Source: Candidatus Daviesbacteria bacterium RIFCSPHIGHO2_02_FULL_39_12
GTDB taxonomy: Bacteria > Patescibacteriota > Microgenomatia > Daviesbacterales > UBA10151
Length of the DNA: 46,903 nt
NCBI GenBank assembly: GCA_001777055.1
Contig: MFCX01000036.1
Coordinates: forward strand, 1-46,903
Reading direction: 5' to 3'
The position numbers were made by a program, and so were the translations under genes. The notes under the pieces are model-generated. The model saw nothing but the letters and a program-made list of their open reading frames with translations. It was not told the DNA's origin and did no database searches. Positions 4,177 through 14,176 of the stretch are shown here, piece after piece (within the stretch, counting starts at the first letter, position 1; each line of letters starts with the position of its first letter).

Positions 4177-5237
4177 TGATCAAATTGCCTGGACTGATTG
4201 ATACTCATGTACACTTAAGAGAACCCGGTGCCGCTCAAAAAGAAGACTTTGAAACAGGCACCAAAGCAGCTATTGCCGGAGGCTACACTACTATCCTGGA
4301 CATGCCTAATAACCCGGAACCTACTGTTACGCTGAACACCTTAGAGAAGAAGATAACACTTACAAAATCCAGAATTTATTGTGATTTGGGTTTTCATTTT
4401 GGAGCCACTTTAGACTCAGTTGCTTACTTTCCAAAAGTAAAAGATAAAGTCTTCGGGCTGAAAGTTTACATGAACCATACCACAGGCGGCTTACTGCAGG
4501 AAAATCCTCAAGTTTTAAAAAAGATCTTTGAGGCCTGGCTAAACGATAGGGTAATTATGGTCCATGCCGAGGGCCCATCCTTAGAAAAAGCTATAAGTCT
4601 GTCTAAACAATTTAACAGCAAACTGCACGTTTGCCACGTCAGTTTAGCAGAGGAAATAAGATTGATAAAACAGGCTAAAGATCAAAGATTGAGTATAACT
4701 TGCGAAGTGTCCGGGCACCATCTATTTTTGACGGATGAAGATTTAGGAAGATTGGAGGGATTTGGGAAAATGAGACCTCCCCTGCCTTCAAAAAAAGATC
4801 AGAAAGCTTTATGGGAAGCAATTGCAGATGGCACAATTGATACTATAGCCTCAGATCATGCTCCTCATACAAAAGAGGAGAAAAGTAGCAATAACCCGCC
4901 AAACGGAGTTCCGGGTTTAGAAACTACCCTGCCCTTACTTTTAACAGCAGTCAGTGAGGGCAGATTAATCATAGATGACATCATCCGTCTTTGCCACACC
5001 AACCCTAAAAGGATTTTTAATATTCCGGACCAGCCGGACACTTATGTAGAAGTTGATCCAACTATACGCTATACACTATACGCTATACGCTTATACACCA
5101 AATGCTCCTGGACTCCTTTTGAAGGCATGAAAGTTATAGGAAAAATCAAACGGGTAGTTTTAAGAGGAAATTTAGTGTATGATAATGGGCAAGTTTCAGA
5201 CCCACCAAAAGGACAGGTGATCTATCCAAAGAAATGA
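4176..5237 (+). CDS. pyrC: Dihydroorotase
   Basis: DTHVHLREPG metal-binding motif, VHAEG, ASDHAPH. Start overlaps the pyrE stop. Carries an in-frame heptamer-array insert (TIRYTLYAIRLYT). Confidence 0.85.
   Translation: MIKLPGLIDTHVHLREPGAAQKEDFETGTKAAIAGGYTTILDMPNNPEPTVTLNTLEKKITLTKSRIYCDLGFHFGATLDSVAYFPKVKDKVFGLKVYMNHTTGGLLQENPQVLKKIFEAWLNDRVIMVHAEGPSLEKAISLSKQFNSKLHVCHVSLAEEIRLIKQAKDQRLSITCEVSGHHLFLTDEDLGRLEGFGKMRPPLPSKKDQKALWEAIADGTIDTIASDHAPHTKEEKSSNNPPNGVPGLETTLPLLLTAVSEGRLIIDDIIRLCHTNPKRIFNIPDQPDTYVEVDPTIRYTLYAIRLYTKCSWTPFEGMKVIGKIKRVVLRGNLVYDNGQVSDPPKGQVIYPKK
5062..5098 (+). repeat. Heptamer-periodic array (ctatacg family) inside pyrC
   Basis: ctatacg ctataca ctatacg ctatacg cttatac. 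Same unit as the array at 7493-7534. Confidence 0.85.
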
Positions 5238-6364
5238 GTACTAACCTACCGGATCCAAAAGAATTTGTAGACCCCAACCAGCCTCCTTTGATATATGAAA
5301 TTGAAAAAAGCTGGGAAGAGGTAATTTCTAAACCTCCTGTATGGCTTTCCCATAAATTCCCTCCGCTTCCAATTGAAGCAAAGTATGAATTTTTGGGGCA
5401 CAAGTTAATTTCCCCTATTGCCATTGCTGCAGGCCCGGCCTCCGGCAAAATTTGGACCGACTTTTATTTTAAAATGGGTTACGGAATGGTCATCCAAAAA
5501 ACCAGAAGAACAGTACCAAGACTATCTAATACGCAACCAAATATTGCCATTGTTTACCTTGACAAACCGGTGGAAGAAGACGGCTTGGGAGAAACTTTAG
5601 CAGCAAGTAACGATCCCAGAGACTTTGAAAAATATAAAAGCATGACCAATTCCTTTGGCAATCCTTCCTCTGATATTTTAACTTGGGCTAAGGAACTACC
5701 TGATCAAAGAAAGATAATGCAACCAGGTCAAATATTAGCATGCAGTGTGACTGCTACCACCCCGGATGAGGCTGCCCAAATAGTGGAAACTGCCTCTGAT
5801 TTACTAGTCGGAGCAACTGCTGCAGTTTTGGGAGGGGCTGATGTCATAGAATTTAATTTAGCTTGTCCCAATGTGACGGAAAATCCCCAGGAAGGCGAGA
5901 TGTTTCAAAATGTCAAGCTTGTTAAATATGTCTTATCAGAATTTAAAAGAAGGTTTCCTAAAATTCCTGTAGGCATCAAATTCGGAGTATACAATTCCAA
6001 AGAACAAATGAAAAAAGTGTTTGCCGAAGCAGGGGAAAATTTGAATTATGTCTCAGGGATTAATGCCTTGAAAATGACGGTCTTAACTCCTGATGGCAGT
6101 GAAATTTTACCCGGCAGGAAAACTTCCGGAGTCTGCGGCATTGCAGATCAAATAATTGCTCTAAAACATATCCGATGGGCAGCCCAAATCAGACAGGAAG
6201 AAGGATTAAAATATCAAATTTTAGGCGGAGGGGGAATTATAGAGCCTTCTGATGCAGATAGATACTTATCAACCGGCGCAGATATGGTCCAAGTGGCAAC
6301 CATAGCCTTAGCAGACCCCTTGCTTGCCTATAAATATAGATTAGGTCATCGTTTAGTAACTTAA
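5234..6364 (+). CDS. pyrD: Dihydroorotate dehydrogenase-like flavoprotein (class 1-like, with N-terminal extension)
   Basis: NLACPNV, PVGIKFG and GGGGI TIM-barrel FMN motifs. ATGA overlap with pyrC. Confidence 0.65.
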   Translation: MSTNLPDPKEFVDPNQPPLIYEIEKSWEEVISKPPVWLSHKFPPLPIEAKYEFLGHKLISPIAIAAGPASGKIWTDFYFKMGYGMVIQKTRRTVPRLSNTQPNIAIVYLDKPVEEDGLGETLAASNDPRDFEKYKSMTNSFGNPSSDILTWAKELPDQRKIMQPGQILACSVTATTPDEAAQIVETASDLLVGATAAVLGGADVIEFNLACPNVTENPQEGEMFQNVKLVKYVLSEFKRRFPKIPVGIKFGVYNSKEQMKKVFAEAGENLNYVSGINALKMTVLTPDGSEILPGRKTSGVCGIADQIIALKHIRWAAQIRQEEGLKYQILGGGGIIEPSDADRYLSTGADMVQVATIALADPLLAYKYRLGHRLVT

Positions 6365-7431
6365 TATTTACGTAGTCCGCCAGTCACTTTCACTTTGCCT
6401 AAAAGATCCAAATTATTTAAGACTTCTCCGCAACCTCTGACCACTGTGGTTAACGGATCATCTGCCACATAAATTGGCAGCTTTGTTTCTTCGGCAATCC
6501 TTTTATCCAGACCCGGGATTAACGCGCCGCCTCCGGCCAGAAAAATCCCTCTTTCCACTATATCTGTCAAAAGCTCAGGCGGAGTTTCTTCCAAGACTTC
6601 CTTAATAGTAGAAATAATTTGTGAAATGATGGAAGATAGAGCTTCTCTGATCTCTGAAGCAGAAATCTTTAAAGATTTTGGCAAGCCTGTAGCCAAATCT
6701 CTCCCCCTGACAACGGTTGCTTGAGAATCCATTTTATCCACCGGAAAAGCAGACCCAATTTCAATCTTTATATCTTCTGCGCTTTTTTCACCAATTAACA
6801 TGCCATATCTTGTCCGCATATAGGAAACAATGGCTTCATCAAGTTCGTCACCGGCTACTCTGAGAGATCTGTTAATAACCATTCCGCCTAAAGAAATTAC
6901 GGCGATTTCCGTGGTACCCCCCCCAATATCTACGATCATCACACCTTCCGGTTCTTCTACCGGCAATTTTGCCCCAATAGCCGCGGCCATTGGCTCTTCA
7001 ATCAAAAATGCCTCCCTGGCTCCGGCTGACAAGCAAGCATCCTGGACTGCCCTTCTTTCGACTTCAGTCACGCCTGAAGGAATACCTACGGCAACTCTTG
7101 GCTTGGGGATTTTTGGCAGAGACCACATACTTTTTGAAGGGTTGTTGTGAACTTTGCGTATAAAATATCGCAACATAGCCTCTGTAGTATCAAAATCAGA
7201 AATTACCCCGTTTCTTAAGGGCCTGACTGCTTCAATTGCAGCCGGAGTCCTACCCAGCATTCTCTTTGCTTCTGTGCCAATTGCCAAAATTTGCCTGGTT
7301 TTTCTGTGCAATGCTACTACGGTAGGTTCTCTGATAACTATACCTTTGTTTTTTACCAAAACCAGAGTATTAACTGTACCCAAATCAATACCAACGTCAT
7401 GAGCAAAATAGCTCCAAAACCTATTCAACAT
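6361..7431 (-). CDS. mreB: Rod shape-determining actin homologue MreB
   Basis: DVGIDLGTVNTLV, MIVDIGGGTTEIAVISLGG, FLAGGGALIPGLD: canonical MreB/actin-fold phosphate and adenosine motifs. Confidence 0.95.
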   Translation of the reverse strand: MLNRFWSYFAHDVGIDLGTVNTLVLVKNKGIVIREPTVVALHRKTRQILAIGTEAKRMLGRTPAAIEAVRPLRNGVISDFDTTEAMLRYFIRKVHNNPSKSMWSLPKIPKPRVAVGIPSGVTEVERRAVQDACLSAGAREAFLIEEPMAAAIGAKLPVEEPEGVMIVDIGGGTTEIAVISLGGMVINRSLRVAGDELDEAIVSYMRTRYGMLIGEKSAEDIKIEIGSAFPVDKMDSQATVVRGRDLATGLPKSLKISASEIREALSSIISQIISTIKEVLEETPPELLTDIVERGIFLAGGGALIPGLDKRIAEETKLPIYVADDPLTTVVRGCGEVLNNLDLLGKVKVTGGLRKY

Positions 7432-7492
7432 GAATGGAGTTTAACATATTAATCAGGGAATAGTTAAGTAGCGTTTAGGATTCAGTTGACAA

Positions 7493-13877: not shown

Positions 13878-14094
13878 GTTGTTCTTTTGGATAAGGCCGG
13901 GAAGTACTCTTTACAATTCTTAAACACTTTGTGCAATACTTTTTGCCTTTAAATAAATGCAAATTGGGTTTTTGCATTCTTTTGTGAATTGGAGCGCGCA
14001 AAGCCCAGACGCCTCCCGCACCGGATGAACCTTTTTTGTGCCTTGAATATGAAATAATATTTTTGCCTTTTCCACAGCGTAAACATGCTAACAT
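13864..14094 (-). CDS. rpmB: Ribosomal protein L28-like
   Basis: CLRCGKGKNIISYSRH..KRMQKPNLH..KKYCTKCLR resembles the L28 CxxCGK..SH..KR..PNL pattern. The 3' end overlaps the PrkA-like gene by 14 nt. Confidence 0.5.
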   Translation of the reverse strand: MLACLRCGKGKNIISYSRHKKGSSGAGGVWALRAPIHKRMQKPNLHLFKGKKYCTKCLRIVKSTSRPYPKEQLTRQ

Positions 14095-14121
14095 GTGGTA
14101 AACTATAACATAATAAGTAAC

Positions 14122-14176
14122 TAGCGTCTAGGAACGTAAAGTCTAGACTCTTGACTCTAGCGACTAGACTCTAACT
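14122..14176 (+). repeat. Heptamer-periodic array (tagactc family) abutting the M50 protease start codon
   Basis: tagcgtc taggaac .. tagactc ttgactc tagcgac tagactc taact-ATG. Inverted relative to the fmt array. Confidence 0.8.

Follow-up and report, generated by a model that had tools for sequence, protein, structure and literature searches.

The window analysed here, that is, positions 1-46,903 (46,903 nucleotides, nt) of contig MFCX01000036.1 of the ultra-small groundwater bacterium Candidatus Daviesbacteria bacterium RIFCSPHIGHO2_02_FULL_39_12, carries short tandem arrays of about five 7-nt units, located both within genes and directly before start codons. Sequence length is unchanged where these arrays overwrite pyrC and four hot spots in a membrane-protein gene. 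The array units within one genome evolve in concert, and relatives carry different units at the same sites. Array density in related genomes is strongly associated with the absence of the mismatch repair (MMR) proteins MutS and MutL, as well as with genes for four-helix-bundle proteins of the S23p type. The explanation that we favour, tentatively and with the scales close to balance, is that the arrays are products of DNA-level copying or conversion in 7-nt register, acting on patches of ~30-37 nt, unopposed by MMR and filtered by selection.

Abundance and size of the arrays

The source genome comprises 830 kb in 38 contigs. Arrays were called with Tandem Repeats Finder (TRF), the genome count being that of period-7 rows with at least three copies, and five order-3 Markov shuffles of the genome served as the control. 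TRF returned 163 period-7 rows at a score of at least 30, of which 121 have at least three copies, compared with 2-5 such arrays per shuffle. The runner-up periods in the same genome are 9 (25 arrays vs 0-2 in the shuffles) and 6 (13 vs 1-6). A preliminary description of positions 5062-14176, made from the letters alone, had listed nine period-7 sites and proposed a scan against shuffled sequence as a check; each named site receives a period-7 call, and the scan confirms the excess.

A typical array consists of ~32 nt of a repeated 7-nt word, and the commonest copy number is 4.3-5.3, so that the five units originally ascribed to most arrays are about right. Twenty-one arrays in the genome are perfect and represent many unit types. 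Perfect lag-7 runs have a bimodal size distribution (17-20 nt and 30-37 nt) with a maximum of 37 nt; when mismatches are allowed, the second mode lies at 30-35 nt and no run is longer than 38 nt, the shuffle being nearly empty above 17 nt. Lag-7 segments of at least 21 nt number 69 in the real genome vs 1 in a shuffle, and among periods 4-12 the bimodal pattern is found for period 7 alone. Coding and intergenic arrays are equal in size and share the same upper limit. Most of the genomes sampled from the family and the class have arrays of this size, and the ceiling holds in relatives, with almost no run exceeding 38 nt across 3.6 Mb.

Replacement in place and addition of residues

The arrays had at first been considered to give rise to odd peptide inserts in conserved enzymes, a view that holds for only some of the sites. 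The pyrC peptide RYTLYAIRLYT has a gap-free alignment with ordinary residues of 11 orthologues, whose identity goes as low as 50%. In the DNA alignment, other heptamers occupy the same position in other genomes (CTATTCG in G010, CTAAACC/CTATACC in G007, and CTGTAAC in G016), and two genera carry no array there. Residues 300-302 of pyrC are a recurrent hot spot.

A broader comparison is provided by the membrane protein of 671 residues (7535-9550), for which 80 distinct orthologues (167.5 kb) were collected from relatives and metagenome contigs. They contain 182 period-7 arrays, all within ~9 hot spots (residues 55-58, 105, 201-212, 248, 261, 287-297, 394-412, 456-468, and 488-493 of the protein encoded here), and each hot spot holds many different units. 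The length of the segment at the hot spots s57, s105, s261, and s490 (19, 17, 19, and 21 residues, respectively) follows the same pattern in the 50 orthologues with an array as in those without. At s57, a 19-residue segment is found in all but one of the 16 orthologues with an array and in all but one of the 64 without; the sole 26-residue variant also exists without an array, and relatives use AAACGAT or AAATCGT units at this site. Hot spot 201-212 accounts for 45 arrays, 29 of which lie in its core (208-212) and use 19 unit types.

Additions of ~30 nt occur only in loops and at N-termini. In the loop hot spot 394-412, array-bearing orthologues are longer than the others (median 37 vs 32 residues). 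The segment around 8908 has 10, 16, or 19 residues among orthologues, with no 21-nt step, and relatives carry within this hot spot (456-468) perfect CTTCTCA arrays of 4.6 copies (G001 and G012) or CTATACC arrays of 4.3 copies (G007). Both the ATG of fmt and an N-terminal extension of 12 residues come from the array at its start; the nearest orthologues begin with MKI(A/I)FLGTP and have no such extension. The second fmt array, at 10992, lies within an addition of ~10 residues common to some relatives, most orthologues being without it. At residues 207-211, fmt has a hot spot in which six arrays occur, two of them made of ATAACAA and one each of AATGGAC, AGAGTCA, AAGTAAA, and AAAGTCA. Thus, of the presumed inserts, those at pyrC, 7687, and 8149 are replacements in place, while those at 8718-8782, 8908, 10993, and the fmt N terminus do add residues. 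Length differences amount to 0 at the in-place sites and to 9, 18, and 27 nt at the variable ones.

As regards phase-variable contingency repeats, in which altered unit numbers turn a reading frame or promoter on or off, the reading frame of coding arrays is kept across orthologues, as is the length at in-place sites, while the leader array of the membrane-protein gene varies by whole units. The latter has 5.3 CTATACG copies here, 4.3 in L071, and ~3 in G008, all at the same intergenic site; copy number varies where the reading frame is irrelevant. Upstream of the M50-peptidase-like gene in G002, an unrelated array of ATGATTT units takes up the same position relative to the start (-37 to -6).

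Several further features accompany the array sites, the coordinates of which are collected in Table 1. A TTGACA hexamer (7486-7491) lies directly 5' of the perfect CTATACG array in the membrane-protein leader, and each unit of this array includes TATACG, so that -10-like hexamers recur every 7 nt before the gene. No significant hairpin is predicted for the abutting 8718 and 8740 arrays (z = -1.15). GC-rich insertions interrupt or adjoin array sites in L068 (at the equivalent of window positions 7687-7721) and in fmt of L015, L029, L066, L068, L082, L093, and L098; one of them is a 21-nt hairpin of the ggcacacccctccttcggagg type, and the others are long inserts rich in P, A, R, and G, such as PARNASPARNDVALSGEHSD. 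Adjoining the M50-like gene is a 326-residue open reading frame (ORF; 14836-15816, minus strand) encoding a putative transposase. Period-9 arrays of TATAATAAT, with ~4 copies each, are located at 20990-21029 and 27139-27174.

Table 1. Period-7 arrays, four-helix-bundle genes, and hairpin-forming array pairs. Positions refer to the window unless a contig is given.
Feature	Position	Strand	Remarks
CTATACG-type array in pyrC	5062-5098	+	TRF 5062-5096, 4.9 copies, 89% match; in place
Perfect CTATACG array, leader of membrane-protein gene	7493-7529	+	TRF 5.3 copies, 100%; ATG at 7535
AATCnTn array, hot spot s57	7687-7721	+	TRF 7687-7718, 4.6 copies; encodes KIINRKSLIFNR; in place
ACTTATT/ACTTGTT array in transmembrane segment, hot spot s208	8149-8185	+	TRF 8149-8180, 4.6 copies; in place
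AATTCAA array in length-variable loop, hot spot 394-412	8718-8740	+	TRF 3.3 copies
AACTTTT-type array abutting the AATTCAA array, hot spot 394-412	8740-8782	+	TRF 8740-8772, 4.7 copies
AACTTTT/CACTTTT array in variable-length segment, hot spot 456-468	8907-8942	+	TRF 8907-8939, 4.7 copies
Degenerate AAAACTC-type array spanning the fmt ATG (10380)	10371-10419	+	TRF 10371-10415, 6.4 copies, 66%
AGAGTCA array in fmt	10992-11021	+	TRF 4.3 copies
Degenerate TCTAGAC/GACTCTA array before ATG (14177) of M50-peptidase-like gene	14122-14176	+	TRF 14142-14173, 4.6 copies, 68%; ends 3 nt before the ATG
Degenerate period-7 array outside 5062-14176	27640-27670		TRF
CTCTATA period-7 array outside 5062-14176	44590-44619		TRF
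ATATACT period-7 array outside 5062-14176	45600-45629		TRF
Gene for four-helix bundle plus suffix domain, distant S23p relative	37015-37620	-	TIGR04258 49.8 bits (cut-off 40)
Second four-helix-bundle-suffix gene	40929-41543	-	TIGR04258 55.1 bits
Period-9 TRF rows tied to second four-helix-bundle-suffix gene	40880, 41099, 41471
Gene-less hairpins with complementary heptamer-array arms	C23:18820-18883, C18:266-372, C24:27163-27241, C11:32166-32241		predicted -27 to -38 kcal/mol

Concerted evolution of the units

Averaged over all orthologues, lag-7 identity at hot spot s208 is 0.565, compared with ~0.25 at lags 5, 6, 8, and 9, and the in-place hot spots likewise show a mean lag-7 identity over all orthologues above that at these four lags. 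Over the same positions, units within an array resemble each other more than they resemble the orthologous sequence (0.79 vs 0.65 at s208, 0.74 vs 0.57 at s490). For 29 of 35 pairs of array-bearing orthologues at s208 and 14 of 15 at s490, the majority base is not the same at one or more unit positions. At s57, the in-phase change of TC to CG in three successive units replaces I by T, R by D, and S by R, all of them non-conservative substitutions; the change is driven at the level of DNA and not by the protein. The composition of the units tracks their context, being T-rich in transmembrane segments and A-rich in loops, which fits local templating rather than imported sequence. Near relatives carry related units at one hot spot. 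The earlier suggestion of a local templated-insertion or slippage process is thus borne out as far as a DNA-level origin of a templated or slippage type is concerned, as opposed to repeats of the protein.

Metagenome pairs with 99.3-99.9% identity show no array changes, and the differences between them lie in clustered recombination patches; the informative pairs are those with 80-88% identity. For the contigs L072 and L074 (99.3% identical over 16 kb), the 108 differences fall into seven clusters of up to 35 changes each, as expected of short patches recombined between strains. In a test of whether variants spread to adjacent units, identity rose with lag (7, 14, 21, and 28) in coding as well as intergenic arrays; the rise is an artefact, as TRF cuts the ends of arrays back to matching bases.

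Placement, orientation, and unit families

According to ORF calls that are crude (coding fraction 89.5%), 86 of the 121 arrays (71%) are wholly contained in ORFs, 14 extend across the end of one, and the remaining 21 are intergenic; non-coding DNA is enriched for arrays ~2.8-fold (p = 2e-8). Array centres are found 0-60 nt upstream of a start in 19 of the 121 cases, vs 5.7% of random points (p = 6e-5). The arrays had been described as located at start codons and as tolerated in coding sequence; the former is correct as an enrichment just upstream of starts, although not as the prevailing location, and the latter agrees with the majority lying within ORFs. The coding strand of the arrays is rich in A (44% vs 32%), and the orientation in which the unit contains no stop codon is preferred, 36 vs 10. 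Selection filters the arrays, as seen in this stop-free orientation bias.

About 40 unit families are present in the genome, and the commonest recur on many contigs, for example, ACTCTAG eight times and AAAAGTT seven times. Sharing of units (at most one mismatch) is found for 12.9% of pairs at most 3 kb apart and for 11.0% of pairs on different contigs. The proposal that families are shared only locally therefore fails genome-wide, as proximity within 3 kb does not raise sharing above the level seen between contigs. The exception is formed by pairs closer than ~150 nt, most of them inverted, for which local sharing is real; beyond ~300 nt, it is not significant.

Association with mismatch repair

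MutS (PF00488) and MutL (PF01119) were not found in this genome or in the majority of the class. Genes of the MutS1 type are present in 13 of the 201 genomes of the class and, within the family, in G011. The 13 MMR-positive genomes, belonging to nine families, yield nine arrays in 988 kb sampled (median 0), a density near the shuffle baseline, whereas the median for 24 MMR-negative genomes is 9.3 arrays per 100 kb (Mann-Whitney p = 7.7e-6, phylogeny not corrected for). All five contrasts available within families point in the same direction, with fewer arrays where MMR is present, and a Poisson fit gives a ~13-fold lower array density with MMR at a fixed S23p count. In G011, no lag-7 excess is seen at four of the five in-place hot spots. 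Confounding by base composition or genome size was considered and rejected, as MMR-positive genomes span 34-50% GC and 1.0-1.8 Mb, and MMR-negative genomes of 1.0-1.2 Mb can be array-rich.

When the genomes are divided by both MMR status and four-helix-bundle content, the pooled density is 0.28 per 100 kb for MMR-positive genomes without a four-helix-bundle gene (10 genomes) and 13.8 per 100 kb for MMR-negative genomes with one. The two mixed classes have the same density of 2.5 per 100 kb, namely, MMR-positive genomes with such a gene (seven arrays in 280 kb, three genomes) and MMR-negative genomes without it (four arrays in 160 kb, three genomes).

Four-helix-bundle genes and hairpin-forming array pairs

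In relatives, all 12 of the sampled S23p genes (PF05635, '23S rRNA intervening-sequence protein') directly adjoin a period-7 array of 4-6 units. Eight of them are flanked on both sides, and unit inspection shows seven of these eight pairs to be inverted. S23p genes occur in 144 of the 201 class genomes, reaching 20 copies in genomes smaller than 1 Mb, and their number correlates with array density (Spearman 0.66 for all genomes, 0.53 among the MMR-negative ones). An S23p or a four-helix-bundle-suffix gene is present in all genomes with a density of 8 or more arrays per 100 kb, while the 13 genomes with neither have at most 3.3 arrays per 100 kb. G021, with seven S23p copies, reaches 33 arrays per 100 kb; G054, which belongs to the same genus, has no S23p gene. 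The S23p protein of one relative matches the PDB entry 2gsc, from Xanthomonas, which contains five chains. Avd, a protein of diversity-generating retroelements that is homologous to S23p, is a pentamer.

This genome has no PF05635 match above the cut-off, and a single partial hit is found in G001, a relative of the same genus. The only two four-helix-bundle-suffix genes of the genome are both located in the window and are paralogous. The first of them (37015-37620) scores 23.8 bits with PF05635, below the cut-off, and 24.4 bits with TIGR02436 (cut-off 24); in addition, repeated G-rich words within it encode peptides resembling PNFPDLP. In the second gene, period-9 arrays (AGACTCATG / CATGAGACT) encode peptides of the HESNKSHETNESHG type. 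Heptamer arrays do not flank either gene. About 10 of the 13 adjacent array pairs of this genome are complementary, with at most two mismatches per unit, and fold as gene-less hairpins, none of which falls within 5062-14176. Their architecture matches that of the arms around S23p genes in relatives.

Origin of the arrays

In the mechanism that we consider best, the process would make adjoining heptamers identical by overwriting existing sequence at constant length and, where length is free (in loops, N-termini, and intergenic leaders), would add ~30 nt. By its continued action, the units of one array would change jointly, diverging as a block from lineage to lineage. Selection would decide only where arrays survive, namely, in loops, transmembrane helices, protein ends, and leaders, and would keep only those orientations and variants that avoid in-frame stops; the same hot spots would recur in many genera because selection sets where arrays persist. 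As for the agent, we infer that, in the course of replication or repair synthesis, the nascent strand may transiently misalign with the heptamer next to it. This misalignment would leave a mismatched heteroduplex that MutS and MutL would normally erase, and this lineage is without both. A mismatched heteroduplex being a substrate of MutS/MutL, both the same-length conversion and the dependence on MMR would be explained. The S23p cassettes of related genomes, in which arrays form paired arms, would either seed arrays or exploit them, and the misalignment and S23p models are not mutually exclusive.

Several points weigh against this explanation. The MMR status of the genomes is confounded with their four-helix-bundle content, as 10 of the 13 MMR-positive genomes have no S23p-type gene, and the two mixed classes, equal in density, comprise three genomes each. 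Some MMR-negative genomes are array-poor (G114 with 0, G095 with 1.7, and G006 with 2.9 arrays per 100 kb), and we know of no other MMR-less bacteria noted for such arrays. The MutS protein of E. coli does not act on 7-nt loops, so that MMR would have to act on the mismatches of misaligned heteroduplexes and not on the gain or loss of units. Finally, misalignment does not explain the ceiling of five units, and simple slippage predicts no sharp limit of this kind.

In the main alternative, which is possible although rather doubtful, the arrays belong as cis-elements to a system, selfish or mutagenic, that is centred on S23p-type proteins. A full copy would then consist of an array, an S23p gene, and an inverted array, with gene-less hairpins and single arrays either derived from it or produced by the protein acting on DNA; a pentameric protein with one heptamer per subunit would account for the size of five units, and MMR would only modulate the outcome. 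The consistent juxtaposition of PF05635 genes and arrays in relatives (12 of 12, eight on both sides), the abundance of these genes across the class with its correlation to array density, and the density threshold separating genomes with and without S23p or suffix genes all agree with such a system, as do the ~10 gene-less hairpin pairs and the two suffix genes present here. The match to the five-chain entry 2gsc fits the size limit, and its source, Xanthomonas, is known for heptamer repeats (PMC4692102). Nevertheless, this genome is without a canonical S23p and G001 has a single partial hit, yet both hold perfect arrays, and ~40 unit families could not be read sequence-specifically by two proteins. 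Arrays placed at unchanged length do not fit the insertion of an element, MMR-positive genomes with S23p stay array-poor (0-3.8 per 100 kb), and no catalytic partner is evident, a reverse transcriptase having been found neither here nor in most array-rich genomes. A further, unlikely reading is that the arrays are written by a dedicated machine, a pentameric S23p-type protein that, holding five 7-nt registers, drives short-patch conversion of any DNA, also within genes, into five copies of a single heptamer, with the mismatched intermediates erased by MutS/MutL where these are present. If so, the S23p writer would represent a previously unknown process of protein-guided sequence overwriting and would unify the short tandemly repeated repetitive (STRR) sequences of cyanobacteria, the heptamers of Xanthomonas and Beggiatoaceae, and the arrays of candidate phyla.

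We regard ordinary microsatellite dynamics, with gain and loss of whole 7-nt units by replication slippage and only frame-preserving outcomes surviving in genes, as very improbable. Such dynamics would produce 21-nt steps, in contrast to the differences of 0 in place and 9, 18, or 27 nt at variable sites, and would not give a size mode of 30-37 nt with a hard upper edge, no decaying tail, and the same limit for intergenic and coding arrays. Whole-unit differences between genomes are indeed seen in the intergenic leader array, and, as cited in PMC4692102 and PMC4679880, heptanucleotides form the most abundant class of long simple repeats in many bacteria, for which an explanation based on polymerase contacts has been proposed. 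The least probable of the explanations considered is that the arrays are selected functional sites, such as leader or translation elements or arrays bound by single-strand-binding proteins, with their periodicity kept by selection. Most arrays lie inside unrelated genes, with units differing by site and by orthologue, and MMR-positive relatives that keep the same genes have near-baseline numbers of arrays. The protein- or RNA-binding arrays that had been envisaged initially are likewise unlikely in a sequence-specific form, because there are ~40 families in one genome and the unit at a site changes between genera. In favour of selected sites are the three-fold enrichment just upstream of start codons, the conservation of the membrane-protein leader array in three genomes, and the proposal that Beggiatoaceae heptamers located before starts are translational regulators, with CspB binding heptamers (PMC4679880). 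Individual leader arrays may have a role.

Three candidate classes were rejected. An insertion element of the miniature inverted-repeat transposable or repetitive extragenic palindromic type would be expected to alter length, and no length difference from array-less sequence exists at pyrC, s57, s105, s261, or s490. The reverse transcriptase of a diversity-generating retroelement (PF00078, RVT_1) was not found in this genome or in most array-rich relatives. In turn, a CRISPR array has identical repeats of at least 24 nt with unique spacers between them, and the units here are contiguous 7-mers without spacers.

Comparison with known repeat systems

Bacterial heptanucleotide repeats have been known since 1990, and their over-representation was shown in 2007; to our knowledge, they have no accepted origin or function. 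The literature search found no paper on the array properties described here or on such arrays in bacteria of candidate phyla. The preliminary description went too far in placing the arrays outside all known repeat classes: they belong to a known kind, that of over-represented heptanucleotide repeats, which includes long simple sequence repeats (SSRs), cyanobacterial STRR, the GGGAATC repeats of Xanthomonas, and the TAACTGA repeats of Beggiatoaceae (PMC4692102, PMC4679880). As PMC4692102 and PMC4679880 summarize for Mrazek et al. 2007, heptanucleotide long SSRs are over-represented in prokaryotes, and slippage linked to the polymerase has been proposed; these repeats are stated there to be mainly intergenic, with non-triplet units disfavoured in genes. 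The arrays of this genome share with them the head-to-tail 7-nt units and the over-representation relative to other unit sizes. They differ in being mostly intragenic (71% in ORFs) rather than intergenic, in overwriting sequence at the same length, in their limit of about five units, and in a density that tracks the loss of MutS/MutL.

The STRR of heterocystous cyanobacteria, the GGGAATC repeats of Xanthomonas, and the GGGGA(T/C)T repeats of Nostoc (PMC4692102) have in common with the present arrays several unit types per genome and positions conserved between relatives, with variable length and sequence. Here, the host belongs to another phylum (Microgenomates/Daviesbacteria of the candidate phyla radiation), the units are A/T-rich with no G-quadruplex potential, and unit families are far more numerous and mostly intragenic. 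Membership in STRR in the strict sense was rejected, as the host is not cyanobacterial and its A/T-rich units are unrelated to the published ones. The TAACTGA direct repeats of marine Beggiatoaceae, often placed directly before start codons (PMC4679880), are similar in having 2-6 heptamer copies and an orientation limited by stop codons; a single unit dominates there, in contrast to dozens of units, mostly within genes, in this genome. The arrays that bracket the S23p cassettes of relatives are of the same size and kind as those described here, whereas in this genome, which is without a canonical S23p, arrays are mostly solitary and intragenic.

Transient strand misalignment and template switching, as in dislocation mutagenesis and quasipalindrome correction, are known forms of templated mutagenesis. 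They share with the favoured mechanism the same-length conversion to a nearby repeat and the mismatched heteroduplex intermediates, but the known cases are single events at isolated sites and are not genome-wide, in a 7-nt register, or limited in size. Perfect inverted repeats and their conservation in bacteria are discussed in PMC5941160.

Compared with all these systems, what is new is the replacement in place of coding sequence in essential genes, the persistence of sites across the class with concerted change of units, the hard size limit near five units, and two testable correlates, the loss of MutS/MutL and the presence of S23p-type genes. The arrays point to a mutational force reshaping proteins in genome-reduced bacteria, and odd low-complexity peptides in such proteomes should be annotated with caution, as they are driven by DNA. 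An old descriptive puzzle, shared with the heptamer repeats of cyanobacteria, Xanthomonas, and Beggiatoaceae, thereby becomes testable in laboratory strains.

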